Origin: a virus
Taxonomy: Duplodnaviria > Caudoviricetes
IMG/VR virus record: IMGVR_UViG_3300035562_000079
Span: 19,743 to 83,742 of that record
DNA length: 64,000 nt
Strand: one strand, 5' to 3'
Part shown: positions 22,251 to 64,000 of the stretch, in pieces
Layout of the letters: the number at the start of each line of letters is the position of its first letter
Numbering within the stretch: the first letter of the stretch is position 1
Notes under the pieces: generated by a model
What the model saw: only the letters and a program-made list of their open reading frames with translations
Databases searched by the model: none
Told to the model about the DNA's origin: nothing
Translations under genes and position numbers: made by a program

Positions 22251-23516
22251 CTACCGCACCTTAAACTTAGGCAGATCTGACCACCGTGTTGTATAGGCAG
22301 GTGAAAGCCATTGCCGCTTCATCTCGAAGCCTGTGTCGATGCCTTGGCCTGCCAAAAATAGCGTGCCTCGAGCGTCTTTGTTTAACCTGTCCATAACAGC
22401 CATTAACTTTTCACTGTTCGGCCGTGGCGGAGCATCGTCAAAGAGTACCAGCTGCGCTTCACGGCCACTAAAATCCGCCAGCATAATGCCCGCTTTAGCA
22501 TACCTGATCCCTGGGCGCCAAATTCGAAGAAGCGCCCGCTGGGCCGCCGCCACAACATCCCGCGTATCCTGTGTAGGCGTGGTGAGAATTTCACAATGTT
22601 GATTGCTGTATTGCACGTCATTAGAAAACGGGCTGGTACGGATAAACACCGATATAGCTTTGCAATACTGTTTTTCCTGCCTCAGCTTTCCGGCCGCTAT
22701 TGATGCGTGACCGCAGATAGCTTGTTGCATATCCACCAGCTCAGTGACTCGCTGACCGAATGATCTGGAGCTGATGATCTGCTGTTTTGTCGGGGGATGT
22801 TCCTCGAGGGCCAAGCAAGCCTCGCCGCGCAGCTCTCGAACGGTACGCTCCAGCATCACGCCAAAGTTCTTCCGTATGAACTTGGTATCGGCAAGGGCCA
22901 GATCCAATGCTGTTTTATACCCCATAACGGTTAATTTTTTTGTAAGCTGCCGACCAACGCCCCAAACTTCAGATACCGGCAACAAGGACAGTAATTTGTA
23001 GCGCCGCGCAGCATCATCAAGCACAACTACGCCCCCCGTTTTGCTCCACGTCTTTGCGGCGTGATTGGCAATCTTCGCAAGGGTTTTCGAGGGGCCAAAC
23101 CCGACACCTATTGTTAGTCCAGTCGCCCGGTAGACGGCATTTCGCAGCTGGTGGCCGAACTCCTCGTAAGACATTGCCTTCCCGAGGCCTGCGCACTCAA
23201 TGAATAGTTCGTCGACACTGTACTGCTCCACGTTGGCTGATAGAGATTCCACTGTTGCGACAAATCGCGCTGACATGTCTGCGTAAAGCGCATAATTTGA
23301 AGAAAATACAATAACTTGATGCTTCTTGATTAAATGTTGCACCTTGAATAGCGGTTCACCCATTTTTAAGCCAGCCAACTTTGCGAGGCGGTTTCTGGCA
23401 ACAATATTGCCATCGTTGTTTGAACTCACGACGACCGCGCGATTGTCCAAGTCTGGTCTGAAAACCTGCTCGCATGAGGCATACATTGAATTAACGTCAG
23501 CAAGTGCAAACATCAT
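22251..23516 (-). CDS. umuC: Y-family DNA polymerase V subunit UmuC
   Basis: FALADVNSMYASCE, YSVDE and LSPAYTTRW motifs. Confidence 0.95.
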   Translation of the reverse strand: MMFALADVNSMYASCEQVFRPDLDNRAVVVSSNNDGNIVARNRLAKLAGLKMGEPLFKVQHLIKKHQVIVFSSNYALYADMSARFVATVESLSANVEQYSVDELFIECAGLGKAMSYEEFGHQLRNAVYRATGLTIGVGFGPSKTLAKIANHAAKTWSKTGGVVVLDDAARRYKLLSLLPVSEVWGVGRQLTKKLTVMGYKTALDLALADTKFIRKNFGVMLERTVRELRGEACLALEEHPPTKQQIISSRSFGQRVTELVDMQQAICGHASIAAGKLRQEKQYCKAISVFIRTSPFSNDVQYSNQHCEILTTPTQDTRDVVAAAQRALLRIWRPGIRYAKAGIMLADFSGREAQLVLFDDAPPRPNSEKLMAVMDRLNKDARGTLFLAGQGIDTGFEMKRQWLSPAYTTRWSDLPKFKVR

Positions 23517-23953
23517 GGTAGCGCCTTGTGCAGCCAGAACGTGACAACCCCCCACACTTCGAATGTGTCAGGATCTGGATATATGGGACTGTATGCGGCA
23601 TTCATCGGCATGAGGCATAGGGTAGGGCGTGTGTGCAACATTTTCACGGTAAACTCGCTATCGACCTTAGCGATGATGATAGAGCCGTGTTTTGCCCGGA
23701 GGTCGCGATCCACTATAAGTAAATCGCCATCATGTATCCCGGCCTCAATCATTGAGTCACCTTCAGCCCAGCCAAAGAATGTTGAGTGCTTTTTGGCGAT
23801 GCAATACTCATTCAGATCCAGGGAGGCATCTTCGTATCCCTGTGCGGGTGAGGGAAACCCAGCACGAATGCGTTCTGCAAATAGCGGGGTGCGCATTTGT
23901 GGCACGCTGGCGCTGGGGTGGAGGATAGGGAAAGGTGCTTCTATAAGTTTCAT
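23513..23953 (-). CDS. umuD: UmuD (S24 autopeptidase)
   Basis: AGFPSPA cleavage site; GDSM and FTVK catalytic motifs. Confidence 0.93.
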   Translation of the reverse strand: MKLIEAPFPILHPSASVPQMRTPLFAERIRAGFPSPAQGYEDASLDLNEYCIAKKHSTFFGWAEGDSMIEAGIHDGDLLIVDRDLRAKHGSIIIAKVDSEFTVKMLHTRPTLCLMPMNAAYSPIYPDPDTFEVWGVVTFWLHKALP

Positions 23954-23969
23954 GATCGCTTCCGTAATA

Positions 23970-23985
23970 CTGTATACATATACAG
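23970..23985. promoter_or_regulatory. LexA (SOS) box
   Basis: CTGTATACATATACAG just upstream of umuD. Confidence 0.92.
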
Positions 23986-24068
23986 TATATATTGCCGGGA
24001 GCGAATTATACAAATACAGCCGTTCGCCATAAAAAAACGCCCTCACTAAGGAGGGCGTTAGACAAGCC

Positions 24069-33542: not shown

Positions 33543-33905
33543 TTATATCACCAGTTCCCCAGATTCAATTTTGTCTACCAGCGATATAGCCAGATCAAGG
33601 AGAAAATCTTGAGTGTTATTGCGCCGCTCAAAATCTGTTTTACCTCCAACGGTACCGCAAGCATGCACCGGAATTAACCAAGGGAAGCGCCGCCGGAATT
33701 CCGACGGGGCAGCATGCTGGTGGTGCCAAACACAAAGGGGGAGTATTCGCTTATGTGCGCCGGGTTTTACGCGCCCATCGATGTGATGAAGACTGACCTC
33801 GTATGATTTTTGTCCGTGGAGTAAGCAAGCAATACAGGGCAACTTGCCCATTCTGTCCATGAACCGCCGTTCTTCGGCTGTAGGTGTGCGACCGTAGTTT
33901 TTCAA
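33543..33905 (-). CDS. ref: Ref RecA-dependent HNH nuclease (short form)
   Basis: GRTPTAEERR, LPCIAC, VSLHHI.GR and LPLC.WHHQHAAP as in P1 Ref. Confidence 0.88.
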   Translation of the reverse strand: MKNYGRTPTAEERRFMDRMGKLPCIACLLHGQKSYEVSLHHIDGRVKPGAHKRILPLCVWHHQHAAPSEFRRRFPWLIPVHACGTVGGKTDFERRNNTQDFLLDLAISLVDKIESGELVI

Positions 33906-35176: not shown

Positions 35177-35581
35177 TCATTTATTGTTCTTGGTTTTTCT
35201 AACAGCTTTGAGTTCTTCAAACAACATGCTGAAGTGTTCAACGCGTTCTTCTAGTGCTGATAGATGTCGCACCTTTTCTGATTCTGGTAGTGCGTTGAAT
35301 AGAGTTATTAACTTCGCTTGCCGCTCGTCCAACTGGCGAGGTAATTCATCTGCGGGAATAGGGCGCTCGGCATCATCACCGTATAGCAACCAAGTTGGAG
35401 AGCAACGTAGGACGCCCCCCAGTGAAAAGAGGTTTTTCCCTTTTGGTTCAGTTTCGCCATTTTCCCACTTAAAGATAGTTACATGAGAGACTCCTACAGC
35501 ATCGCCGAGGCTCTGTTGAGTGAGGTCTAACTCTGTTCTGCGTGACCTTATGCGATCGCTTAGATAGCTGATTTTCGACAT
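35177..35581 (-). CDS. XRE HTH repressor (DicA/C2-like)
   Basis: LTQQSLGDAVGVSHVTIFKWENGETEP..CSPTWLLYG. Confidence 0.85.
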   Translation of the reverse strand: MSKISYLSDRIRSRRTELDLTQQSLGDAVGVSHVTIFKWENGETEPKGKNLFSLGGVLRCSPTWLLYGDDAERPIPADELPRQLDERQAKLITLFNALPESEKVRHLSALEERVEHFSMLFEELKAVRKTKNNK

Positions 35582-35593
35582 GATAATATATCC

Positions 35594-36628
35594 TTAATCC
35601 TTTGTTCTTGTTCCATTTTCCATTAGGTCAAGCATTGCTCCTCTTTGTGCCTCGATATGTCGGATATATCCCATCAATGTTTCTGTTTTCGTCCATGTCC
35701 CTTCCTGCATGATTTGTGGAACGCTGTAACCTGCGGCGGCCATGTCTTGTGCAGCCCCAACACGTGCGCTATGACCAGTCCAGCATGTATATCGATCCTT
35801 ATTGCCTTTTCTGTCGCTTTTCCCGAGTGATGCCCAAGCATCAGAAAATATCTTTTCGATGGCCGGTGCGCTCAGCGGGGTTGAGGTGTTAATGATAGCC
35901 TTGTTTGTTCTGTGTATACGACAAAACAGGAATGCATCAGGGTGATCAGAAAGTCCGGCGGCATTTATCCAGGAAGTAAGGCGCTCGCTAGACAAGGCGC
36001 TGAGTGATTTTGTAACCCCACCAGCCTTCAATATCGTCTTCGTGTACGCTACGTTCAGGATGATCCGGCCATCCTCCGCGCGCTCAATATCACGAACGCG
36101 AAGGCGTCCTATTTCACTCATACGAAGCAAGGTGCTGTACGCAACGTGAAGGAAAGCAAGATTACGAGTGAGCGCAACACGCTGCGAGTCTGCCCAAATG
36201 GAATCTATATTGAGAAGATCCTCGCGGCGAAACGGCACAGCCTGACCTGTCCGCTCACCAGAAACGAGCGCGGAACGCCGCGTTAACCTCATCGCCCTCG
36301 CAATCGTCGGAGAGCTTGTGGGAGATACCACTTGCGCCTGGCGGTGCAACATCGAAATCAGTGATACATGAACCTCGATTGAACCGACCGATAGACCGGA
36401 GTCTTCCAAATGTGAAATATAGTCACGTAGATCCGCACTTTTCATAGGAAAAAAAGTCCGCCCCTCTTTCTCAGACCACGCCGCAACAATACGCATGACG
36501 CTAATTAACTGCGCCCAGGTGTTCGTAGAGAAGGCACCTTTATCACGAACGAACTCACGCAGACGTTGAGAAATATCGTCTTGAGCACCAACTGCTACCA
36601 ATGAATTCAGGTCTGTAACGCCGCTCAT
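35594..36628 (-). CDS. cre: Cre-like tyrosine recombinase
   Basis: 344 aa; AYSTLLRMSE, TKT, WTGHSARVGAAQDM, EGTW and MGYIR catalytic set. Confidence 0.93.
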   Translation of the reverse strand: MSGVTDLNSLVAVGAQDDISQRLREFVRDKGAFSTNTWAQLISVMRIVAAWSEKEGRTFFPMKSADLRDYISHLEDSGLSVGSIEVHVSLISMLHRQAQVVSPTSSPTIARAMRLTRRSALVSGERTGQAVPFRREDLLNIDSIWADSQRVALTRNLAFLHVAYSTLLRMSEIGRLRVRDIERAEDGRIILNVAYTKTILKAGGVTKSLSALSSERLTSWINAAGLSDHPDAFLFCRIHRTNKAIINTSTPLSAPAIEKIFSDAWASLGKSDRKGNKDRYTCWTGHSARVGAAQDMAAAGYSVPQIMQEGTWTKTETLMGYIRHIEAQRGAMLDLMENGTRTKD

Positions 36629-36976
36629 AATTTAATAGCCCTTAAATTTACACTTGGTAGCGCTACGTGAAAAATATTAAATCAACAAGGGTAATCCCTG
36701 TCAGATTTTTTGTAGCGTTACCTATTTTTGTGTTGCTACTTTTTCAGTCCGGTGCCGGTAACCATCAAACAAGTGCTCCACCAATGAATTACACGCCTCT
36801 AACCCTGACAGTGATTAGGACGTCACTTTTAGCGATTTTCTGTCACGCGGGACGTTGTGAACAATTTGTGAACACTCCCACCAAGGAGCGCAGTCAACTC
36901 ATAGGTCAGTGACACAGAAAATATTTTCTAATGCGGATGTGTTGCGATCACCCCACTACCACTTTTGTGAAACCTT

Positions 36977-37010
36977 CTAACTTTATATAAGTCCCATTAT
37001 ATAAAGTTAT
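36977..37010. promoter_or_regulatory. lox-type recombination site
   Basis: CTAACTTTATATA-AGTCCCAT-TATATAAAGTTAT: 13-8-13 architecture about 350 bp upstream of cre. Confidence 0.88.
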
Positions 37011-37739
37011 GGCGAAGGAGTACAGATCCGGCTTAATTTGACTTAAGAGTCCTTCTTTTGGGGGGTAAGCTGATTTTGTGAAGCGTGACTCAGATAATCC
37101 AATCTATTTGTTATAAACGGCGAATAGTAACAACGTTTTTAATGCGTAAAAGTAGCGTTTTCATTTGTTATAATTTGTAATGGACAGCGATCTAAAACCA
37201 GATAAAATAGCGCCGATGTGAAAAACTAACTGACTATTATTGTAAAGGGAGTTTCGTGAGTTCTTTAACCTCGCCCGACGATGAGCAGATATTGCAGTCG
37301 GCTAAGCATAACTTTATTAGCAGTAGGTCTTCTTCTTTCATCGCGGAAATGATGTGTATATTAAGTGCTGAATTTCCGAGTTCTTGTGTGCAGGAGGCAC
37401 ATCGCAGAATCAAAGCTCTTACCAACATTCATAATGCGCATTCAAATAGTTTTAGTGGTTAATTTTTAAAATTTATTTGGCGTCTATGGCCCCTTGTAGG
37501 GGTCGCTAACCCCTCCAGCAAACTGAACCCATCCGACCACTCCCGTAGCGATTTGCAGCCCTCTATGGGGGTGTGTAGGTGCGGAATTCTCTTAAATAGC
37601 CACCTATCTCTACGATCCAACAAAAAACATTCTCAATTCGTGTTGAAACGTATTAAAATAAAAAGTGTGTCTGTTTATCTAATAGATAATTAGAATTTTT
37701 AGATGTATCCAGAATGGATTGTGCAGCGTTAATTAACGT

Positions 37740-38708
37740 ATGGGAATGAATAATAGAATGAATACTGCCCTGTTCGATACCGCGTTTAAAGCCTTTAAGG
37801 AAGTACGGAGGGAGTGGATTCAGATTTTACAGCGCTATGCCGTGTACATTAACGACACCGGAGACGGCGTGCAACGGCCTGTGGCGGTGATCAATGATCC
37901 TGAGATAATGGCGCGCCTGCGTCATTTACAGCTTGAATGGGAGCGTTTTTACCTCCTGGCTGAATCTCGCCGTCTTAAAAAGCTGTCGCCGCTCCCGGTT
38001 TCGCTGTATTCGCCGGTGCCGGTTATCGCAACGAGCGGTGATCTGGCGGCTGTCATTGTCACCCAGGCGGCCAATACCATGAAGTGGCACAGGGATAAGG
38101 TAATCATGTCCCTAGAAAAGAAACTAGCTCAACATATGAAAATGCGCCGGTTGGTAGAGTCTGGTGCATTACCACAGAATGAACTGCCTTTAATTAATGC
38201 GACCATCGCCGTATATGAGGCTGATTTGGAGCGCTTCAACGCAATGCCTGAAGGCACTATGCTTGTTCGCCGGCAAAGCGGTTATACCGACGTTATCGTA
38301 AAAATTAAGAATGAGGCTTCACAAGATGAGGTGTCGACTCTGAGTTCTATCTTTGATGGGTTCGTGGAAACGGAGGTTATCCGTGTTGGCGCCTATGGCT
38401 GCGTTATCGATGGCTCTAAGTTGAAATACGAGCCTGTCATTGACGACAAAACAACGGCGGAGACTCGCCGTAATGTTTATGCCAACGTTACGCCAGTACC
38501 GTGCGCGCTGATGAGTTCTAATGCCTCGTTATATCTGCTAGATGACGTTAATCGTGCTAAAGCAGAAGCGAAACAAGCTGCGCTGGATGAGCGGCGCAAA
38601 ACAAGCCGCCATGTAATGCGGGCCTCTCGCGGCCATACAGATGATGTCGCAGAAGAAAAGAAGCCACTTCGCACGCGGATCTCAAGCAAAGCCGTCCCGA
38701 AAAATTGA
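37740..38708 (+). CDS. c1: Primary repressor C1
   Basis: RPVAV, LY.PVP.I, QAAN and GY.D motifs plus basic tail colinear with P1 C1; converges on pacB. Confidence 0.8.
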   Translation: MGMNNRMNTALFDTAFKAFKEVRREWIQILQRYAVYINDTGDGVQRPVAVINDPEIMARLRHLQLEWERFYLLAESRRLKKLSPLPVSLYSPVPVIATSGDLAAVIVTQAANTMKWHRDKVIMSLEKKLAQHMKMRRLVESGALPQNELPLINATIAVYEADLERFNAMPEGTMLVRRQSGYTDVIVKIKNEASQDEVSTLSSIFDGFVETEVIRVGAYGCVIDGSKLKYEPVIDDKTTAETRRNVYANVTPVPCALMSSNASLYLLDDVNRAKAEAKQAALDERRKTSRHVMRASRGHTDDVAEEKKPLRTRISSKAVPKN

Positions 38709-38746: not shown

Positions 38747-40264
38747 CTACGCTGCCCCTTCCTCTGCATCATCAAAGTCATCCAGGTATTTCAACGCGTC
38801 CACTCGTACATTTTCCCTATCGAAACCAACGTCATCATTTGCGGCTACAAAGTCCACCAGCATCGAGAAGCAATACGTATCCCATAGATCTGGTGATTTG
38901 ATATTAAGCTTCTGCCGCATTACGGTTTTCTTCATGATTACGTTCTGTCCCATCTCATTTATATCGACAGGGATTTTACTAGCTTGCTCAGCTGTTTTAG
39001 GGTTCGCATCAAGGCGCATACGACCGGACTTAATCGCATCCCTTGCCATTATGTTGGCAAAAGCGCGCTGGTTGGCGAATCGTTGTTTATCGTCGCGGGA
39101 GTGCATTGGCTTACCCCAATTTATACGAACAACAGGCACACCAAGGGACTCTAGTTCCCTCACTGTTGCATCGCCAATGCCGTCGGCATCAACGGCTATT
39201 GTTATGTTGGGGAACTTCTCTTGAGTGCATTCCTGAAAGATATAGTGAGCAAATTTGACGGGGTGACAGTCGCCGGCCATCTCCATTACCAAGAACGGAA
39301 CAACTCGCCTTGTGTGGCGCCGGCCGGACACCCTGAAAATACTCAACACTGATTTGTCACGGCCGTTACCAACGTCACAACACGCAACCCAACCCCAGCC
39401 TTTATGCAGACGTACTTTCCGCCTTGCTGCCCGTTCGCACTCATCACGTCCCAGGAGGAAGCCATGAGCATTTTTAGGGAACAGGCCTAATACTTTAATT
39501 TGATACTCGGGGTTGTCACGACCACCGTACTCCAACAGCTTACTGCGTATGAACTTCTCATTTACCCACGGGGATTCTTCTGAGTTGAGCGTAATAGCTG
39601 TAAAGTCACCCCTTGGGTTTTCCTTAGAGCGCGCAAGCTTGTGATGGGAGTCGTAGAAATAGCCACTTGGTCGAGTTGGCTGGGATATCAGTAATAGTCG
39701 GTTATCGTCCTCTGTCAGTGCGCCAGTGATGATACCGAAAGCTTTGTCGTTAACACCTGACGCTTCATCGATGATGTAAAATAGGTGTTTAGCGTGTTCG
39801 CCTGCAAGCGCCTCTTCATTACCACGTCGGAAGCCCTTTGGAATGACTGTCCAGCTGCCTTTATTGGCGATCTCATAGAAAGACGTATCAGTGATTACAA
39901 AGTAGTTCTGGAGCCACGGTTGACGGCGAACGCACTCGTTCCAGTTTTGCTTTATATATTTGAAAATACCGGTCATTACCTGTTGGATCTTGTTCGCAAC
40001 GATAATGACGCGCGCACCTGGGTAAAACATCAGGTAGCACAGGATCATGATAGAGGTCATGTCCGATTTACCAGTACCATGCCCCGATGCAACAGTGGTG
40101 CGGCTACCAGTATCTTGGGCGGCGTTGATAATCTCTTCCTGTTGCCAGCTGGGGATCTTACCGAACAGCTCCACGGCTGCCAGGCTCCAGTCATAGCGAT
40201 AGCGGATTACCATATCCCGCCAGCGGGGGTCTGTTGTGACCGAGCGTATCGTTTTACGCGCCAT
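38747..40264 (-). CDS. pacB: Terminase large subunit PacB
   Basis: SGHGTGKS Walker A, IIDEASG Walker B, RNase H DVG..D and SPDLWD. Confidence 0.95.
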
Positions 40265-41501
40265 CTCTTGCCCCTCCTGGCCCATATAACTCATCGTCGG
40301 TTAGTTCGTCATCAAACTCCTCGTCAGACTCAAATTCACTACTGATAAACTCGCCTTCGCGTCCATCTCCATCGGCGTCAATATCTCCGTAACTACCTTC
40401 ATCAACGATCTGCGCAACCATTGCTCGCCGTTCTGCAATAAAGTCCTCTTTACCCTCCCTCATAGCCTTATGCTTTCTTGCTTCTGCATCGATTTGTTCA
40501 TCATCAACGGTACTTGTATTGTCATCAGGCTCAGGTGGCTTGGTGGCCTCTATACGGGCTTGCTGCATCAAATGAGGTGGAACTATGCCTCCGTTTGCTT
40601 CGATGAACTCTGCCGTCTCCTGATAGCTCCAGTCGTGTTCCTTTTGCTGTTCATAGGCCACCGCAATCAGATTCAGAGTTTCCATTTTGATGCTGTGGGC
40701 CTCTTCCTCTCTGCGCGACTTCAACATCACTGAACGTAGTGCACTCATCGATTTGGCTGTTTCACCGATCCCTACACTGACATTGAGTAGCATCTGTAGC
40801 GTTTTGTGTACCGGGTGCGTGCCTCCTTCATCTGGTTTGAAATCGCCAGCCTCCTCGTCTAACCGGTCGAGACTACGATTGCGAGCGCGCTCCATGAGCT
40901 TTAAGTGGGAATAGACCATTGCAATTGAGCGAGCTTCTAGGGTGTTAATGAAGTTTGGATCTCGCATTTCCTCCAGGGTGTCTTCTACATCCTGGGGGCG
41001 AGGCGTTGCATAACGGCCATGAATAATGCACTCCTCGTTCATGTGTCCAAAGCGACGGCCGCCCCGCGCTTTAGGCACATGAAGCAGGGCCGCATCGTCC
41101 ACCCCGTTCTCCGCCGGGAAAGTGATCTTTTTGTCGCTTGCATGATCACGTGCTTTTCGTGATCTCTTATGGTCTGCCGCCTCAGCGCTAAATCGTGCTT
41201 CACCAGAGCTGGTGCGGGTTCGTCGCACATTTTTGGGGGCAGTGATCACGTGATCACTTTCGCTCCCGATAGGATGATCACTTGAACGATCACGTTTGTG
41301 ATCACCTTTAGAGGCCTTTCCTGCTGGCGCTTTCTTTGGTTTATTCTTTGGAGCTGGCTGCGACTGGTCTGCCGACCTCTTTTTCAGCTCCCTACGGGCC
41401 GTATTTGCGTTCAAGCCGTGGGCTTCAGCATATTCCTTGACTGTGATCCCTCGCTCATTTTGGAGCGCGGCAAATCTTTCTCTGTGCTCATCCCAGGTCA
41501 T
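40254..41501 (-). CDS. pacA: Terminase small subunit PacA
   Basis: N-terminal HTH (GLNANTARR), DH repeats, HG.YA motif; precedes pacB. Confidence 0.88.
41123..41304. promoter_or_regulatory. pac site (GATC hexamer clusters)
   Basis: (T/C)GATC(A/T) at 41123, 41143, 41160 and 41243, 41251, 41275, 41287, 41299 inside pacA. Confidence 0.8.
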
Positions 41502-41707: not shown

Positions 41708-42811
41708 ATGAGCAAAAACAAACCAGTTTATGTGGCTTTAGACTGTGGCTCTGGCAATGTTGCTACCGTAATGGAGAATAAGGGCGAGGTTCAGATTCGT
41801 GTAACTCCATCGTTTGTAGCGAGAGTGCTGGGACAGGCGAAAGAAAGCGACTCGAAGACTAACTGGGTTACCACGGGTGCCAGCGGCGAACTGGAAACCT
41901 ATGCTGTGATGAATAAGGCTATCGGCGCCATTGATACCCGGACACCCGATTATCAACTGAGCGCGGCTTGTCGTGTGCTTGTAGTTAATGCTTTGGCACA
42001 GCTCAAACTTGGCGGCCGCAAAGTAGTGATCGCTGACACCTTGCCGGCAGACCAGTATTACGATGATAACAACGCCATAAACCGCCAGCAGATCGAGCTG
42101 AAGAGAAATTCCTTGATGACCGCGGTAACCAACGCCACCAGCGAAATTGCTTCACCTGACATCGTGTGTGTTGAAATCATGCCGGAAGCCGTGACCGCAT
42201 ATAATGCAGCCCTATACACCCAGGATGGGCAAGATAACCCGTTCCTGATTGGTGCCAAGGATGTAGCCATTATCGATATTGGTCGCTATACCTGCGATAT
42301 CGCACACTTGGATTGTGACAACCATACCCTGTTCTCACGTGGCACAACCCCTCGCGGTGTTCATATCATGCTGGAAGCGGTCAAAATGCAGATGATTGAC
42401 CAGGCAGAAACGATCGGTATCCCTGTGGAGAAAGTTCGCGTGATGACGCTCGATGACATCGACTCCATTGTCCGCAAGGGCTACTACGGTTCGAGCATTG
42501 AAGCCTTGAAAGATAAACGGGTGTATCTTGACCATATCATCTCGGCTGCGGCAGCAAGCTTCGCAAGTGAAATCAACTATGCTCTCAAAACCATTGTTAA
42601 GTCACTTGGCAGCATCGATGCGCTGATTATTGTTGGCGGCGGCGCATACTATATTGGTGGCCTGCTTCGAGAAATGCCTAACTTTGTTGCGGATTGGCAT
42701 GATAACGTTGTGATACCCCACCAGCCGGAAACTGCGGTCGCACGTGGTGCATACCTTGCCCTATTGGCCCGGCATGATGTGGAAGATCAAACAACTGAAA
42801 TTGAGGCTTAA
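41708..42811 (+). CDS. parM: ParM/StbA actin-like partition ATPase
   Basis: LDCGSGN, MPEA, IDIGRYT.D and VGGGA actin-fold motifs. Confidence 0.88.
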   Translation: MSKNKPVYVALDCGSGNVATVMENKGEVQIRVTPSFVARVLGQAKESDSKTNWVTTGASGELETYAVMNKAIGAIDTRTPDYQLSAACRVLVVNALAQLKLGGRKVVIADTLPADQYYDDNNAINRQQIELKRNSLMTAVTNATSEIASPDIVCVEIMPEAVTAYNAALYTQDGQDNPFLIGAKDVAIIDIGRYTCDIAHLDCDNHTLFSRGTTPRGVHIMLEAVKMQMIDQAETIGIPVEKVRVMTLDDIDSIVRKGYYGSSIEALKDKRVYLDHIISAAAASFASEINYALKTIVKSLGSIDALIIVGGGAYYIGGLLREMPNFVADWHDNVVIPHQPETAVARGAYLALLARHDVEDQTTEIEA

Positions 42812-42813
42812 TT

Positions 42814-43293
42814 ATGGCTGAAAACAAACGCCGTCTACTTCAGCTTAATCTGGATAAAGTTGCAGCTCACAGCTATTTTGGAAAACGCTTTGTCGATAAG
42901 CACCAAAAGACTGATGCTCTGGTATCCCGGCAGGCACTGCTGTTCAACTCGATCAGCATCGGCAATATGATTATCGAAAGCGGTTTGGATAGCGCCTTTA
43001 AAGCCCTGGATAATGCGACGTTTGCGAACGCCAGTAAGGCTGATCGAGCCGAAATGATTCTTCGAGCGTTGGAGCTATTTAGCGGAGTTAAAACCACCAG
43101 CGGCAAAGCTTCTCAGCAACCCCCTGAGCCGTCAGTGCAAAGGGTTGTTGAGTCAGGGCCACCAGCAGTGAAAGCTGAAGACAAGCCCGTGGATCAGACA
43201 CCTGAAGCGCCGGCTGAAGAATACAGTGACAGCGCCGAAACCACAAAAATGTCATTGCCGTTAAAACGTGATAAAGCCCGAACGTTTAGCTAA
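42814..43293 (+). CDS. Putative ParR/StbB adaptor
   Basis: Directly after parM; low-complexity C-terminus. Confidence 0.55.
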   Translation: MAENKRRLLQLNLDKVAAHSYFGKRFVDKHQKTDALVSRQALLFNSISIGNMIIESGLDSAFKALDNATFANASKADRAEMILRALELFSGVKTTSGKASQQPPEPSVQRVVESGPPAVKAEDKPVDQTPEAPAEEYSDSAETTKMSLPLKRDKARTFS

Positions 43294-43668
43294 TAGGCTG
43301 TGAAATAACTCCCTTCCAAAAGCCATCGCACTCAGCATGGCTTTTTCCTTTGCATCGCCCCTGAGTGTTTCCTTGATGATGGTAGTGGATAGGTCGGTGC
43401 GTCTACCATTGCGGAACTTGAAGTAATGGCTGCTGATAGCTTTCAAGTGGAAAGTTCGCGGCCGGATCTCGTCATAAAGCACGCAATCCGCCTGGTTGGA
43501 ACGGTAGAAACCTTTCAACCGTATATAGATGTCATTTTTTTCTATGAGGAGGCCTGGATATGCTTTCTGGAGAAGAATAGTTAGCTCGGGGGCTGAGACA
43601 GGCCTATTTAGTCTCAACATAAAATCTGCGACTTCTGCACTGTTGATGCGTGGGCGATTTTCCTGCAT
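43261..43668 (-). CDS. lpa: Late promoter activator Lpa
   Basis: RI.S.E.ADFM, S..EL..L.K.YP, D.Y.RLK and RPR.F as in P1 Lpa. Confidence 0.8.
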   Translation of the reverse strand: MQENRPRINSAEVADFMLRLNRPVSAPELTILLQKAYPGLLIEKNDIYIRLKGFYRSNQADCVLYDEIRPRTFHLKAISSHYFKFRNGRRTDLSTTIIKETLRGDAKEKAMLSAMAFGRELFHSLLAKRSGFITF

Positions 43669-44036
43669 TGCGTCCTTCACTCTGCTGTGTTGCGTAAAAC
43701 TAATTAAAGCATTCGGGACGATAATAGCTGGAGAACAATGACCTTTCAAATGCGCTATTGAGCCGGAAAACTCACAAGTGCTAAGGCGGGCGAGGTTTCT
43801 CCTGTTAATGCATTACTAATTAACTAATTATTTTAGACCGCTTCGTAAGCCATCTTCATTTTTTAGTACAATGTTCTGTTTTCAGCTAAAAATGACATAG
43901 TGACTTACACGGCACACAACTGTCGGGATTTACCAATTCTATTTAACTAACAGGATGTTAGACCAAACCCACAAAACCAATTCCCATCATGGTAAAATTG
44001 GAATCCAGCGGCGCCCTTTTAATAACCGGAGAAAAC

Positions 44037-53799: not shown

Positions 53800-54122
53800 A
53801 GTTTATTGAGTTCAGCCAGGTACTTCTCTACCGCTTCTCGCATAATCGCACTGACGCTTTTTGGGTTCTTCCCCGCTCGTTTATTGCTCAGCGCCAAATC
53901 TTCAATTTTGCGCTGTAGTGCCATTGGCAACGAAATAGCAGTGCGCGTCATCTGTTCAGCTGGTGCTGGGGCCGCCGCAGGTGCTACTGACGCCTCTGGC
54001 TCAGCTTCATGCTGCCCGTATGGTCGATCAGACAAACGCTTAGCGAGGGCTTCAACCTCGGCTTCACTTGGTGCGGGGCGGCGATCTACCTGTACGCGTT
54101 CGCTTGGTTTTTTCACAGCCAT
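53796..54122 (-). CDS. ParG-like RHH centromere-binding protein
   Basis: Flexible N-terminus plus RTAISLP...SVSAIMREAVEKYL; coupled to parA. Confidence 0.75.
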   Translation of the reverse strand: MAVKKPSERVQVDRRPAPSEAEVEALAKRLSDRPYGQHEAEPEASVAPAAAPAPAEQMTRTAISLPMALQRKIEDLALSNKRAGKNPKSVSAIMREAVEKYLAELNKL

Positions 54123-54757
54123 TAGAATACCTCGTCAATCAAAGACCAAATTTCAACTTTCGCTTTTTCGTTGTCTGTTTCGAGCACCGACTTACCTTCA
54201 GCCATCACATCGCGATAAACCTTGCGGAAGCAACTCTTAGAATTCAAGGGCTTGAGTTGGTCAAACTCTGCTACATAATCCAGAAATTCTTTGCGCTCAG
54301 TCCCAGCCAAAATAGGATTTGTTGAGGCAATACTTTGATAGCAATACGCTTTCAGATCGGGGTTTAAATCTCGAACTTGAATTAATTGCTCTTGCAGCTC
54401 CAGCATTGTGTCGAGATCCAGTTGCGAACACTGATGCGGTGCAATGAGTTGATGGGCCACTGTGCAGGCGGTGATCAGTTCTCGGCTGTTACGCCCGGCC
54501 ACATCCACGATGACGTGTTTGTATTTTTCGTCAAGGCTTCGTAGCGTAGCTGCAATGTTGCCTGTTTTCTGGATTAGGGTGATAAACGGCTGAAGGCCTG
54601 ATGATTCACGCTCAGCATTCCAACGAGACGCCGACAACTGTATATCAGCATCCACCAGCACAGCCTCTTCACCACGCAGTGCCAGCCCCACCGCTATGTT
54701 TACGGCTGTTGTAGTTTTCGAACATCCACCCTTGTTTGCGCCAACGACAGTGATCAT
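54122..54757 (-). CDS. parA: ParA/ParF Walker ATPase (type Ib)
   Basis: KGGCSKTT, VDAD.Q and IVD motifs; 211 aa with no HTH. Confidence 0.92.
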   Translation of the reverse strand: MITVVGANKGGCSKTTTAVNIAVGLALRGEEAVLVDADIQLSASRWNAERESSGLQPFITLIQKTGNIAATLRSLDEKYKHVIVDVAGRNSRELITACTVAHQLIAPHQCSQLDLDTMLELQEQLIQVRDLNPDLKAYCYQSIASTNPILAGTERKEFLDYVAEFDQLKPLNSKSCFRKVYRDVMAEGKSVLETDNEKAKVEIWSLIDEVF

Positions 54758-58343: not shown

Positions 58344-61300
58344 TTAGCGATATTCAGCGATCGCTGCCATAACATCTTTCAAATCATGCGTGGCAGGAAT
58401 AATCCACCAGCTACCCATAAACTCCATCCCAGAGCGTTTCCCATTCAGGTACTTAGCTCCAAATTCAGACTTGAGTTTATCCTTAGCCTGGTACAGAGCG
58501 CCACCTATCCCATCGCTATCCTGCAAACCATACGCACCATCAGCGGGGAAATCATAACGGTTAGTACCTTTCCCGCCGGTTAATGGCTGGGTATTTTTTC
58601 GGACAGTAATGCTATCCATGCTGGTGGTCGCTTCGGATACTGCCTCATCGGCTTTCACACGCAGTGTCTTCTCAGCTTCTACGCGGTCGGCCTCAGCCTT
58701 AGCCTCTTCTTCGGTTATCAGGCCTGCACGCAATTTTAGTCCCGCCAGGAACGCAGTATTGTCGCTGTTAGCTGCACTGAAGGCTGAGTCAATCATTTTG
58801 GTCGTTTCACCGATCATCGAGCTGTCATAAAAAGCGGATTCGGTGATGCTCTCCTTGTCGATCAACCCCATGATGACCGCGTGCGCATAGAACTCATCCA
58901 GATTATATGCATCGTAGTTAATGGCCCCGAAAGACGATGATTTATACATGGGTGATAACAATAGAGCCGTAGCTCTAAATTCTTTGGCCTTCTCGTAAAC
59001 CGCACTCACAGGTAGCGTCAGATTATCGCCATATCGCAACCAGGCTGCGTGCGCGATGCGCTTCGCTTGCTGGACAACATTTTCATGATGCTCGGCAGTT
59101 TTCTGCCTTGTGGCAGCAGAAAGCACCGGCTGGAAGTCCTCGATGTTTCTGTACTCGCTAGGGATATAGTTTGCTTTAAACGGGGGGATTACATTGCTTA
59201 TGTACTGCGTGGCATCGTATTTCCCTGTAAGCAGGTATTCGCTGTACTGAGACACTTGGCTACCGTCAAATTTCCGATTTTTAAGGTCGGTTTTCTCAAT
59301 CGAACGTGCGATATACGCAGCAACAATCTCATCAATAGCCGCTGGGCTTGCGATCTCCCCGTATTTATTAACCTCGCTACGCCACTCCCGGCCAAATAGT
59401 CCGATAAGGAATGGCTCAATACCTCTCACATTCCGATCAGAGCGGCACCACTTTGCCATAGCAGTTTTAAGCGTATCGTCCTGAGTGTCAGGGTACACTA
59501 CGCTCGCCGCATTTTTGGTTAGCCATTCCATACCTTCACTAGTGATGATCGGGTTAGGGGAATAGGAGCGTGTTATCCGTAAATCATAAGTATCCAGTTC
59601 ACCTGCATCATTGCGATATACCACCCTCGTATCGCTCAGAATCAGCCAGCCATTCGCAAGATATCGCTCAAACTCGCCCTTAGTCATCTGTTCTTCTACA
59701 GAATGCGTGTAGCGCCCTGGGGCGGCCCACGCTCTGAGAGTGGCCTCGGATTCCGGCACATCGCTGTCTCCGCCCAGGTCGGCAAGGACAACCGTCTTAC
59801 CGTTCTCCAGCGAACCCCCTTTGTTGTCTTCAAAGAAAATAACATCAGCAAGACCAGTACCGGCGTCAATGTCGATCGTCCGCAGGCGAATATAGCTTCG
59901 GCTACCTGGGTTCAAGCGGTAAATGCCACCGCGCTTTATCATTCGCCCATATGCCGTCTGAACGTAGCGATCGCCGTGTGTCAGAATATCGGTATCAATG
60001 TTCAGTAACCCTGCCTTGATTGCGCGTTCAATTTCCGGTGAGAGTTGCTTAATTCGGTCGGCCGCTTTCTGCATTCGTAAAGTAACTCGTTCAAGTCGTG
60101 TGACTTCGCGCGTTTCCTTCTGTAATGATTTTTGTATGGCACTTACCCAATCTCGCGCATGTCGTTCCACGCCGGAATACTGCGAACTCATCCCCTTTTG
60201 CACATCATCACGCGCTGCCGCAAGTTTACGCTCGGCCTCTGCCTGACGCGAACGAGCACCGGCTAGTTGCGAGGCAATCGTAGTTGCGCTCTCTTTCTCG
60301 GCATGACTCATCTTGAGGTATTCCGCCAGATTAGCCTCAGCTCGCTGACGGGCTTTCTCTCTTGCAACTGCTTCGGCCTTCGAGCGGGCCTCAGCGACCA
60401 TGCGAGCGTGATCTTCCGGGTTAGCAGCAAGCAGCAGCCGCATTTCTTCCTGGTTATTGGCGTCCGCGTTTGCCATTCGCGCCTTATCCGAGGTGAGAAT
60501 TTCGGTAATCCAGTCCTTTTTACGTTTCAGCGTATTGAGCCGGAATTCGTCAAACGAACCCTTACCACAGTAGTAATGGACACGAACGGAACTGGCTTTT
60601 GAACCCACACGCGCACCACGGCCGTTGCGCTGGTCGATGCTGGCAGGCGTCCACGGCAGAGTTAGATGGTGAACATCACTGGTACCACGGTGAAGGTTGA
60701 TCCCTACTTCGGCCTTTTTATTACAGATCAGGAACGGCGTTCGGCCTTCGTTGTAGTTCGCTGCGATTTGCTCCAACCCGCCAAGGGATACTTCCGTTTT
60801 TTTGGCGATATACTCGTCATACTCCTCTTTGGCCTGGTAGTAGTTCGCTAATTCTTCCTGACTAGCGTCTTCTTTCGGTTCTTTTGGTTCTGCGACAGCT
60901 TTGTGTGCCCTCCCTGTTTTCCCCGCATCAGCGACGGTTGTCGCGTTGAGAATGCCGATCAACGACAGGTCAATTCCGAGAGCATCAGCAATAATGCGCG
61001 CCAATTTTCCATGCTGCGTTTTTTCATCGGTAAATATGATCTGCTTGCCGGTTTTAACCCCTTCTTTCAGATTCTCGACCAGCGCACTGTATTTCGGCGG
61101 TACCGGATGCGATACATCGGATACATGCAAGCCCGCTTTGCCCAAACGTTTCAACACCTCGCTTTCTGCTGCCTCCGACACAACAAGCTGAACGAAATCG
61201 CTGGTGGTTGTAACTTCCGGGGCAACCTTGATCCGCACAGACTTACTGCTATCGTCGTCCTCATCGAGCTTACGACCGACATATTCCGGTAGCAGATCCA

Positions 61301-64000
61301 CGAGCGCAGCCACGGCACTAGCCTTCCCTACAGGAAAGCGGAACGTCATTTGACGGTAGTAAAGGTCTGGGTCTATACAAACTCGATCCATATCGCGGAT
61401 GATGGAGAAAATTGAATCAATTTCTTCTCCTTCATCTGGTTTTTCACCTTTAGAAAGCGCATCGGCCCGCTGGCGCAACTCTTCGTAAATCTCGGCTTGC
61501 TTAGCGGTCATCGGCACCGGAACGTTCCGTTCGTCCAGCTCTGGGATTTTTACAGTATCTGATACATCTTTGGCTGTTTTAAGCGTTGTCCAACGGTGGA
61601 AAATACCACGCAGGCCGTCCAGGTTTTTAAAACCCACAAGCCCCTGCTTACGTTCAATTTCGCCGGAAATCTTCTGGACAGTGACTTCTTCGGTTAAACC
61701 GAACGTTTTCACGAAATCATCCGGCGTGAGAATGCCCATACGCTGCCATTCTTCACTGCTCACGACATGGGATAGCATATTGAAGGCGTCGATCGGTGAG
61801 TTAACCAGCGGAGTTGCTGTCAGAAATACCGGGCCTCGACCACTATTCTTGCTGGTGGTAAAAGCCGTTTTCAACGCCATATCTCGTGCGGTTTTCGCCA
61901 CAGCACCGGTGGGTAGGTAGGCCAACTGTGCGGCCTCACGGCCAGCTGCATAGCTGTTGCGGTAGTTATGCCCTTCATCAACGATGATGCTGTCAAAGTG
62001 CATATCTTCAAAGTACGGAAAGTCCTCTTTTTTGTCCGTACCGGTATCACTGGCACGAGCCAGTATTTTATTACGCTTCGCGGCGTCGCGGTGCTTTCCA
62101 CCGATAAGATCAACACGCCCCATCTGCGCTTCGGCAAACAGGACATCTCGAGCGTGCTCGTCTACGGTATCCTGGCGGAGGGGGATGGCTGCAAACTGCT
62201 CTTTGGTCAAAAGTACCGAGCGATAATTGGACATGGGAATCATGTTCATCCGCTCTTTTATTGTTTCTGGTGAGGCGAGTTTTACTGCGTTGCGGTAAAC
62301 CTGTAGGCCGGTTTTGCTATTAATGGCCGGTTCGCCATTGTCATCAAGCACCGGTACCTGCTTGATAAAACCATCTTCCCCGCGTATCTCATCCAGGCCA
62401 ACGAACAACATGTTATCGAGTGCAGGTTTACTGTAGAACTCCTGCGCTTCGTGATACCAGTTTTCAAGTACAGCTTTTGGCACAACAAAAGCGGTTCGCT
62501 TACTGCGGCCGTTCTCAAAGTTGTACGCTTCCAGGGCTAATCCCACGGTGGATTTACCCAGGCCCGTACCAAACGCAGTGATCCCTCGACCATCCTCGGA
62601 TAACCGGCGCACTTCCGAGTTTTGATATCGGAACGGGATACGATCACCTGATATACCGCTCAGGTTTAGCGATTCCTCGCTATGGCTGTACGGGATAAAG
62701 GCATTGAATGAATCATTGTATTGCTGCACCAGTGCTGATAGTGAATCGTGGCGGCGTATCCACTGATTAAAGTCGTCTTCCAACCCTCGGATCTGCCCCA
62801 GATATAGATCTGCATTAACGCCACGTGGTTTCACACCGTTAAGGTAGTTCTCAAACTGGTCAAGAAAACCATCGCTGTTGCGTACTCGCTTATAAACCCA
62901 TTCTTCCTTACCCGTTTCCTTGTTTTTGGTGCGCACGGATTTATACCGGTAACCGGTAAATATACCGTCGCCGCCGTGGTAGCCATCCTCAGATACCAGG
63001 TCGCCATTTTCTATCTGCACATTTTTGACGTATTTAACATCGCTGTACCCGCGTTCCTGTAAAAACTCCTGGATCACGCTTCGGTCAAACCAGCGGCTGT
63101 TGAGCGAGAAATCTATATCATCAGCATTCGTCCATTTCCGCCGCGCCTTTATCTCGGCCAGCTGGCGATGATAGTTGTCCTTGATCGCACCATCTGGCGT
63201 GCCATCCAGGGCACCTAACAACTGACTATTCAACAGACCAATATCACCGCTGGTGGCCCTATCCATCGGCATAAGCGTGCCGTCAGGTTGGACGGCGATC
63301 CCGTCTTTAGTTGCCAACAGGTTTAATAGCGCCGAGTCACTCGCCGGTAGGTCGCCAGTGAATGCTTCTCGGAAGGAGTTTAGCTCGACCGGATCAAGAT
63401 CAATCTGGTTAAACAAGTGGCGCAACACCTGCTCATGATCCGTGGCGTCGTAGGTTTTCAGATTGCCCTTATCCAGATCACCACGTAGTAGTGCGGATAA
63501 TTCTCCCTCTTTCGTGACGCTGGCCTTGAAGGTAAGCCAGCCTGCGGCACCGTCGCCCGCAACTTTAGCAGAACGTCCCTGGTGTGGATTTCCGTGGGCA
63601 GTGACTTCTTCGCTTACCAGGCGTTGCACATCGGCCAGCTCACGATCAAGCGCCTCCGACTGCCAACCTGTAGCCATTTTTTCTTGCAACGTCTTAATCC
63701 GGGCGCCTATCAGAGATCCCCGTAACACCCGCTCCCGCAAGGCTGGTTTTTGCCGCATGGCAAAGGAAATAGCGAAGTGAAACTCCGTTGGGATCGCGTC
63801 TGGGAAGTTTTGCCAAACAGCTTCCAGCTGCGACGGTGTAAGTGATAACAACCCTTCCGCGTTATTGAGGCGCGTCACCAGGTCGCTGTAGCTCTTTCCG
63901 CCGTACTTGCTCACGTCGATCGTGTCGTAATTGGCCGAATCATCCACCAGCCACCGGCCACCTATAAACTCATACCAAACACCGGAAAAGAGTCGTTTTT
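58344..64000 (-). CDS. darB: DarB antirestriction protein (SNF2-type helicase part; 5' end outside window)
   Basis: GTGLGKS, VDEGH, TATP and QRNGRG.R motifs; more than 1867 aa; upstream of ulx-lxc. Confidence 0.9.
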   Translation of the reverse strand, partial: KRLFSGVWYEFIGGRWLVDDSANYDTIDVSKYGGKSYSDLVTRLNNAEGLLSLTPSQLEAVWQNFPDAIPTEFHFAISFAMRQKPALRERVLRGSLIGARIKTLQEKMATGWQSEALDRELADVQRLVSEEVTAHGNPHQGRSAKVAGDGAAGWLTFKASVTKEGELSALLRGDLDKGNLKTYDATDHEQVLRHLFNQIDLDPVELNSFREAFTGDLPASDSALLNLLATKDGIAVQPDGTLMPMDRATSGDIGLLNSQLLGALDGTPDGAIKDNYHRQLAEIKARRKWTNADDIDFSLNSRWFDRSVIQEFLQERGYSDVKYVKNVQIENGDLVSEDGYHGGDGIFTGYRYKSVRTKNKETGKEEWVYKRVRNSDGFLDQFENYLNGVKPRGVNADLYLGQIRGLEDDFNQWIRRHDSLSALVQQYNDSFNAFIPYSHSEESLNLSGISGDRIPFRYQNSEVRRLSEDGRGITAFGTGLGKSTVGLALEAYNFENGRSKRTAFVVPKAVLENWYHEAQEFYSKPALDNMLFVGLDEIRGEDGFIKQVPVLDDNGEPAINSKTGLQVYRNAVKLASPETIKERMNMIPMSNYRSVLLTKEQFAAIPLRQDTVDEHARDVLFAEAQMGRVDLIGGKHRDAAKRNKILARASDTGTDKKEDFPYFEDMHFDSIIVDEGHNYRNSYAAGREAAQLAYLPTGAVAKTARDMALKTAFTTSKNSGRGPVFLTATPLVNSPIDAFNMLSHVVSSEEWQRMGILTPDDFVKTFGLTEEVTVQKISGEIERKQGLVGFKNLDGLRGIFHRWTTLKTAKDVSDTVKIPELDERNVPVPMTAKQAEIYEELRQRADALSKGEKPDEGEEIDSIFSIIRDMDRVCIDPDLYYRQMTFRFPVGKASAVAALVDLLPEYVGRKLDEDDDSSKSVRIKVAPEVTTTSDFVQLVVSEAAESEVLKRLGKAGLHVSDVSHPVPPKYSALVENLKEGVKTGKQIIFTDEKTQHGKLARIIADALGIDLSLIGILNATTVADAGKTGRAHKAVAEPKEPKEDASQEELANYYQAKEEYDEYIAKKTEVSLGGLEQIAANYNEGRTPFLICNKKAEVGINLHRGTSDVHHLTLPWTPASIDQRNGRGARVGSKASSVRVHYYCGKGSFDEFRLNTLKRKKDWITEILTSDKARMANADANNQEEMRLLLAANPEDHARMVAEARSKAEAVAREKARQRAEANLAEYLKMSHAEKESATTIASQLAGARSRQAEAERKLAAARDDVQKGMSSQYSGVERHARDWVSAIQKSLQKETREVTRLERVTLRMQKAADRIKQLSPEIERAIKAGLLNIDTDILTHGDRYVQTAYGRMIKRGGIYRLNPGSRSYIRLRTIDIDAGTGLADVIFFEDNKGGSLENGKTVVLADLGGDSDVPESEATLRAWAAPGRYTHSVEEQMTKGEFERYLANGWLILSDTRVVYRNDAGELDTYDLRITRSYSPNPIITSEGMEWLTKNAASVVYPDTQDDTLKTAMAKWCRSDRNVRGIEPFLIGLFGREWRSEVNKYGEIASPAAIDEIVAAYIARSIEKTDLKNRKFDGSQVSQYSEYLLTGKYDATQYISNVIPPFKANYIPSEYRNIEDFQPVLSAATRQKTAEHHENVVQQAKRIAHAAWLRYGDNLTLPVSAVYEKAKEFRATALLLSPMYKSSSFGAINYDAYNLDEFYAHAVIMGLIDKESITESAFYDSSMIGETTKMIDSAFSAANSDNTAFLAGLKLRAGLITEEEAKAEADRVEAEKTLRVKADEAVSEATTSMDSITVRKNTQPLTGGKGTNRYDFPADGAYGLQDSDGIGGALYQAKDKLKSEFGAKYLNGKRSGMEFMGSWWIIPATHDLKDVMAAIAEYR

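Follow-up and report, generated by a model that had tools for sequence, protein, structure and literature searches.

The 64-kb stretch of DNA analysed here (the window), which is part of an 83,742-bp virus record bearing terminal repeats, very probably carries a real Cre/lox module of a distant P1-like phage-plasmid, in which a site of the lox8 type is combined with an enzyme of a separate lineage and would serve circularisation and dimer resolution. Judging from its sequence features, this module is probably functional on its own site, and it comprises the following adjacent elements:

35594..36628, minus strand: Cre-type tyrosine site-specific recombinase, an ORF of 344 aa
36629..36976, minus strand: leader of 348 bp from the site to the recombinase start, with no cra-like ORF
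36977..37010, no strand assigned: lox8-type site of 34 bp, which in the gene direction is ATAACTTTATATA-ATGGGACT-TATATAAAGTTAG

The recombinase and its 34-bp target

On the plus strand, the 34-bp site at 36977-37010 reads CTAACTTTATATA-AGTCCCAT-TATATAAAGTTAT. The reverse complement of its right arm is ATAACTTTATATA, and the two arms agree at 12 of 13 positions, the sole mismatch being the outermost base. Over their inner 12 bp, the arms form a perfect inverted repeat around an asymmetric, non-palindromic 8-bp spacer. The site is located upstream of the recombinase gene, with 348 bp between its near end and the start codon. Inverted repeats of 13-8-13 geometry with at most one mismatch occur only once in the window, namely at this site, and at least one such repeat appeared in 4 of 60 dinucleotide shuffles (mean 0.07), while repeats with up to two mismatches number three in the window versus a shuffle mean of 0.93. 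The geometry by itself is only modestly unusual, and the decisive support for the reality of the site comes from its conservation across loci. The site pattern itself has a single occurrence in the window, against none in 100 shuffles, and the complete 83,742-bp record contains no further copy. The leader at 36629..36976 contains no minus-strand ORF of at least 30 aa, and a consensus promoter scan of this region gave no minus-strand match, the total number of matches not being above that in shuffles. The promoter of the recombinase is presumably located within these 348 bp.

The protein is related to Cre over its full length. A search of the PDB with the recombinase returned 17 distinct sequences, all of them Cre or its engineered derivative Tre, among them Cre 1nzb (E 4.2e-82, residues 10-339 of the recombinase against 14-342 of the chain), and the Pfam family Phage_integrase was matched with an E of 4.8e-15. 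The identity to P1 Cre and D6 Dre amounts to 40.1% and 44.4%, respectively, by tblastn and to 39.3% and 43.8% by global alignment. In a MAFFT alignment with P1 Cre, the residues R173, K201, H289, R292, W315, and Y324 of Cre are all matched, and the catalytic residues are likewise visible in the HMMER alignment to Tre/Cre. The sequence comparison also points to the two-domain Cre architecture of ~340 aa, in which a helical domain at the N-terminus is followed by a catalytic domain at the C-terminus. The target adjoining the gene is of simple build, its 34 bp consisting of inverted 13-bp arms that enclose an asymmetric spacer of 8 bp. The first-pass annotation had claimed a 34-bp site with 12/13 inverted arms and an asymmetric 8-bp spacer, located about 350 bp upstream of a recombinase with a full catalytic set, and each of these elements was reproduced; the loxP and rox arms that it quoted agree with the P1 and D6 records. 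Its general description of a Cre-type recombinase with an adjoining lox-type target, whose arms lie between those of loxP and rox, is therefore supported.

Several positions involved in the reading of the arms were compared with those of known enzymes. At Cre positions 258, 259, 262, 263, and 266 the recombinase carries A-P-E-K-S, identical to Dre, with P at position 259 where Cre has R, and K at position 263 where the Rahnella group has S, F, A, or T. Position 43 is A in the recombinase, R in most relatives, and K in Cre. The recombinase shares 56-58% identity with ten Rahnella proteins, which are referred to as YR8-type solely because their N-termini agree by eye with the printed YR8 sequence. 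In a maximum likelihood tree of 87 rows, built with a quick search method and omitting 16 near-duplicate Panto-like viral rows and three broken genes, an 8-row Serratia clade with a support of 100 and a 70-row clade with a support of 95 are sisters; the latter includes the YR8-type proteins of Rahnella and the YR4 and YR12 types of Pantoea, and the branch uniting both clades has a support of 80. The recombinase does not belong to the YR8 orthologue group, i.e., the Rahnella clade, since the Serratia clade falls outside the 70-row clade. Thus, by its sequence, the enzyme is a new divergent Cre-type member of a separate lineage, which shares its target with the YR8 group.

The phage-plasmid setting

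The surroundings of the module correspond to those of a P1-like element. The features that flank the recombinase and the site are listed below:

33543..33905, minus strand: Ref-like endonuclease, downstream of the recombinase as ref is relative to cre in P1 (phrog_2321, E 2.4e-50)
35177..35581, minus strand: HTH_3 regulator of 134 aa, immediately downstream of the recombinase (Pfam HTH_3 E 5e-14; PHROG repressor/regulator families)
37256..37462, plus strand: 68-aa ORF pointing away from the site and located where P1 has coi, supported by its conservation
37740..38708, plus strand: C1-like protein of 322 aa, at the position of the P1 c1 repressor (phrog_1678, function unknown)
38747..40294, minus strand: PacB-like large terminase, 61% identical to P1 PacB over 493 aa (PHROG terminase large subunit)
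40254..41501, minus strand: PacA-like terminase subunit, 30% identical to P1 PacA, E 2e-38 (phrog_1711 terminase)
41143..41304, no strand assigned: candidate pac site, formed by six clustered TGATC(A/G) hexamers in the 5' part of the pacA-like gene

The resulting gene order (pacA-pacB, C1-like, small ORF, site, recombinase, regulator, and, further on, Ref-like) mirrors that of P1, which is pacA-pacB-c1-coi-lox-(cra)-cre-c8-ref. Elsewhere in the element, PHROG matches include PmgB/C/G/S-like head proteins, tail sheath, baseplate proteins, and an Lpa-like activator, as well as Ref-like, DarB-like, Ulx-like, and UmuD-like proteins, ParA, and a partition protein. Genes for structure, packaging, immunity, and partition thus follow one another as in P1. 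The 322-aa protein, which matches no Pfam family, aligns collinearly with P1 C1 along ~300 residues, with 20% identity and a pairwise E of 2e-5; this weak but collinear C1 homologue is probably the immunity repressor of the element. For the two small proteins the likeness to P1 is positional only. The HTH_3 regulator occupies the position of c8, shows no sequence similarity to P1 C8, and is present in one of the related loci (L001) and missing from the annotation of another (L002). The 68-aa ORF, which has no similarity to P1 Coi and no PHROG match, is intact in all five Serratia-clade loci, and the ORF that overlaps it on the other strand is missing or shortened in two of these. A megablast of the 3-kb region against phage records gave no nucleotide-level match, and the relationship to P1 is therefore distant. 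Taken together, the element is a distant P1-like phage-plasmid of a new lineage, probably of Serratia.

Some further observations concern the layout of the element. The pacA-like gene and the Lpa-like gene (43261-43749) are separated by a partition-protein gene and the next ORF (41708-43293, plus strand), unlike in P1, where lpa directly precedes pacA. A second ParA-like gene is found at 54122-54757. As in P1-type phages, there is a DarB-like methyltransferase/helicase protein of 1,867 aa (58344-63947, minus strand) and a pair formed by UmuD-like and DNA-polymerase genes (22251-24046, minus strand).

The closest relatives of the recombinase are encoded on circular plasmids of Serratia marcescens (84 kb, 92% identity) and Serratia sp. 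JSRIV002 (87 kb, 79% identity), where the gene has the same neighbours as in the window. These relatives bear on another reading, in which the recombinase would be an integrase and the site an attP for insertion into the host chromosome. The names of the matched Pfam and PHROG families, 'phage integrase', point in this direction. However, the two Serratia plasmids are not integrated, the record itself shows terminal repeats as well as genes for partition, the site has the symmetry of a lox-type site and lacks arm-type sites, and the homology to Cre extends over the full length of the protein, all of which make an attP exceedingly improbable.

For the Cre/lox module, the mechanism would follow that of Cre/loxP. 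A recombinase dimer would bind the site through its two 13-bp arms, two sites would be paired in a tetramer, and strands would be exchanged across the central part of the 8-bp spacer via a Holliday junction; from the sequence, we infer that the recombinase is active on this site. In P1, lox falls inside the terminal redundancy of the first headful, and the pac site consists of TGATC(A/G)-type hexamers. The P1 record has its annotated pac cut 275-284 nt into pacA, at a distance of 4.0 kb from lox. The candidate pac cluster of the window, the sole one of its kind there, has five of its six hexamers within 62 bp and occupies the stretch 197-358 nt inside the pacA-like gene; the lox-type site is ~4.2 kb away. 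By analogy with P1, the recombinase would most likely play a dual role. Firstly, it would circularise the terminally redundant DNA after injection, a role suggested by the location of the site about 4 kb from the candidate pac site. Secondly, it would most likely resolve plasmid-prophage dimers.

Conservation of the site and covariation of its arms

The conservation of the site was examined in 104 loci, i.e., the window and 103 related loci, by scanning 1 kb upstream of each recombinase gene for lox-like sites, defined as ...ATA-N8-TAT... with at most three arm mismatches. Such a site was found in 89 of the 104 loci. The other 15 had no site by these criteria within the scanned 1 kb; three of them are broken or partial genes, and in the remaining ones the site may be located farther from the gene. 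The exact 32-bp core TAACTTTATATA-ATGGGACT-TATATAAAGTTA is present in 10 of the 104 loci, four of which are probably the same element sampled repeatedly, since L001, L004, L083, and L084 encode identical proteins, and 21 of the 104 loci are within two differences of this core. The exact core precedes genes of the Serratia clade (92% identical to the recombinase of the window) as well as Rahnella and Chimaeribacter genes (56-59%), and it occurs with one or two changes in Mixta and Erwinia aeris. In the Rahnella relatives, the site is found 200-235 bp upstream of the gene and in the same orientation as in the window.

This conservation is confined almost entirely to the site itself. In a megablast of the Rahnella rivi locus (H69), the Serratia plasmid was matched over the 33-bp site alone, with 100% identity. 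Between clades, with recombinases 56-92% identical, the flanks of the site are unalignable, and an alignment of nine loci covering the site and 80 bp on each side has 30 invariant columns, 28 of which are inside the 34-bp site. A separate search for the exact arms with any spacer yielded eight loci in species-representative genomes and five in viral contigs, 11 of these 13 having a Cre-like gene within 1.6 kb. Their spacers are ATGGGACT in 8/13, ATAGGACT in 2/13, ATGTCAGT in 2/13, and ATTACAGT in 1/13.

Individual loci illustrate the range of arrangements. On a contig of Chimaeribacter arupi, the recombinase gene near 48.6 kb (L012) has no lox-like site upstream, and a site with the same arms and the spacer ATAGGACT is found near 31.8 kb (L114), ~15 kb from the recombinase and with no Cre-like gene within 1.6 kb, a layout that may reflect a rearrangement. 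A contig of a Cocleimonas sp. MAG (L112), from a distant gammaproteobacterial group, has the same 12-bp arms with the spacer ATTACAGT, and no Cre-like gene was detected within 1.6 kb of it. Two viral contigs of 32.8 and 89.9 kb (L119 and L120) have perfect 13-bp arms, ATAACTTTATATA, with the spacer ATGTCAGT; their recombinase is 47-48% identical to that of the window and represents a third lineage using the same arms. The Pantoea sp. C3 plasmid pC3_3 (L026) has the arms CTAACTTCGTATA, which match the loxP arms at 12 of 13 positions, and a different spacer. Loci of the Pantoea dispersa type (L069, L071, and L073) have the spacer ATTGGCAT, which is the rox spacer read in the Dre direction. In the P1 record (L105, positions 1-17), the loxP spacer read towards cre is GCATACAT, and all other sites of the family have AT.....T when read towards their gene. 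The P1 lox site thus appears inverted relative to its gene when compared with its relatives.

The arms of the sites vary together with the proteins that read them. Over the 89 natural pairs, whose counts are phylogenetically non-independent (L001, L004, L083, and L084 are repeat samples), R at Cre position 259 is accompanied by C at position 8 of both arms in 24 of 24 loci, and P at this position by T at position 8 of both arms in 58 of 65 loci, the other seven being mixed. PMC4957104 reports that the change R259P, together with K43R and G263K, shifts Cre towards rox, and the covariation between R/P259 and C/T supports this published specificity switch.

Conservation and covariation also bear on the possibility that the palindrome is mainly an operator of the immunity region, bound, e.g., by the C1-like or the HTH protein, and no recombination site. 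Its position between divergent genes fits such a function, in a region equivalent to P1 immC, which has operators and promoters near lox. Nevertheless, the 13-8-13 architecture and the ...ATA N8 TAT... core are common to loxP, rox, and lox8, the site accompanies the recombinase in large plasmids that are dissimilar to the Serratia element outside the 33-bp site, the sequence of the arms changes together with a recombinase residue that contacts DNA, and the near-identical lox8 is, according to PMC10250229, a proven recombination substrate. An operator in place of a recombination site is hence very improbable, although operator function may be a second role of the site. Both the integration and the operator-only readings are rejected on the grounds of the circular-plasmid relatives, the lox-type architecture, and the covariation.

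lox8, known systems, and sites shared between replicons

The closest described counterpart of the site is lox8, the tested target of YR8, a protein of 349 aa encoded by a plasmid of Rahnella aquatilis HX2 (CP003406.1; Jelicic et al. 2023, PMC10250229 Table S3). In that table, lox8 is given as CTAACTTTATATA AGTCCCAT TATATAATGTTAG; the site of the window is identical at 32 of 34 positions, having the same left arm and the same spacer and two differences in the right arm, and it conforms to the lox8 target type with arms (C/A)TAACTTTATATA and the spacer AGTCCCAT. The proposal of the first-pass annotation that this is a candidate new lox-type site with its own spacer is therefore not supported. 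When the published Cre-type systems are compared, the identity to an already described pair extends to the site and not to the protein, which was compared with the ten Rahnella YR8-type proteins and is 56-58% identical to them. Both are Cre-type enzymes of similar length (344-349 aa). However, the protein of the window is outside the Rahnella clade, has A at Cre position 43 where the Rahnella group has R, and is encoded by a P1-like phage-plasmid.

According to PMC10250229, YR8 excised at lox8 in E. coli under induction only, reaching 25% at the highest arabinose level, a value given as 'around 15%' in the discussion of the same paper, and its activity was high in HEK293T cells. It is for YR8 on lox8 only that recombination independent of accessory proteins has been shown. 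In the supplementary tables of the paper, the half-site string occurs only in the lox8 primers and the YR8 row, and neither this string nor the accession of either Serratia plasmid is present among the ~480 predicted pairs of Table S2. Table S1 of the paper names one target pEVO-lox7 in the primers of the bacterial reporter and lox8 in the mammalian ones. Literature searches found the site sequence in no main text, the matches being unrelated primers; a search for later use of YR8 returned the original paper only, and one for the Cre of a Serratia P1-like phage-plasmid gave, among the papers listed, general phage-plasmid work only.

The other known systems are more distant. The module resembles Cre/loxP in the full-length homology of the protein, the identical catalytic set, the 13-8-13 design of the site, and the location of site and gene between an immunity region with pacAB and ref. 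It differs in the protein identity of ~40%, the spacer, two of the 13 arm positions (TTCGTATA versus TTTATATA), and the absence of a cra ORF between site and gene. Written as 13-8-13 in the gene direction, rox is ATAACTTTAAATA-ATTGGCAT-TATTTAAAGTTAG and matches the site of the window at 29 of 34 positions, differing in one base per arm and in three of the eight spacer bases, and the proteins are 44% identical; as in the window, a C1-like repressor gene adjoins rox in D6. Panto/pox, YR4/lox4, and YR12/lox12 from Pantoea plasmids belong to the same wider family as the recombinase of the window. Pantoea recombinases are 51-60% identical to it and have lox-like sites 190-320 bp upstream, but their arms (TTCATATA, TTCGTATA, and CCTTATATA) and their spacers are different, and the Panto-type proteins, with 41-44% identity, use arms of the GAAACTTTAAATA type.

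These comparisons also bear on the suggestion that the module is a new recombinase/target pair, orthogonal to the existing Cre-type systems and usable alongside them. The protein does represent a distinct lineage (identity of 56-58% to the Rahnella YR8-type proteins and of 39-44% to Cre and Dre) and belongs to the sister group of the 70-row clade with the YR4, YR8, and YR12 types, it has A at Cre position 43, and the exact 34-bp sequence is two positions off lox8. Moreover, PMC10250229 reports that YR8 recombined its own site only in a 13 x 13 matrix and that similarity alone does not predict cross-reactivity. On the other hand, the site is 32/34 identical to lox8 with the same spacer and 29/34 to rox with a single difference per arm, Dre recombines lox8 according to the same source, and an identical 32-bp core serves the Rahnella and Chimaeribacter recombinases. 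Orthogonality to YR8/lox8 and Dre/rox, which the first-pass annotation had held possible, is unlikely because Dre recombines lox8 and the five helix-J positions are those of Dre, and a new orthogonal pair is accordingly given little credence. Instead, the sequence makes a cross-reaction with YR8/lox8 and Dre/rox likely.

The value of the module as a tool is therefore small, as its target is effectively lox8 and would probably clash with YR8/lox8 and Dre, and the set of orthogonal systems is not extended. A possible use would be that of a second, divergent enzyme for the lox8-type site, e.g., if it were more active in bacteria than YR8. If the reading of a shared site is true, this would be a naturally different and possibly more active enzyme for lox8, YR8 being weak in E. 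coli. The 89 natural pairs additionally provide comparative material on how Cre-type proteins read their arms.

The asymmetry of some sites deserves mention in this context. In the published lox8, a TTT arm is paired with an ATT arm; both arms are ATT in two Rahnella species, and a TTC arm is combined with a TTT arm in one of the related loci (L065). Such asymmetric sites might be the footprints of arm swaps.

For the biology of these elements, the module shows that a very distant P1 relative associated with Serratia has retained the lox-cre unit of P1 as well as its place by the genes for immunity and packaging, and that one lox sequence is common to quite different replicons. The identical 32-bp core, including the spacer, is found in the Serratia P1-like phage-plasmid and in plasmids or large contigs of Rahnella and Chimaeribacter, whose recombinases are 56-58% identical to that of the window. 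Cre-type exchange requires matching spacers and, since this core is shared across unrelated replicons, the site could conceivably serve as a common docking point at which the phage-plasmid and resident plasmids fuse and separate through site-specific recombination, so that plasmid DNA would be moved by transduction, an idea that is considered unlikely.
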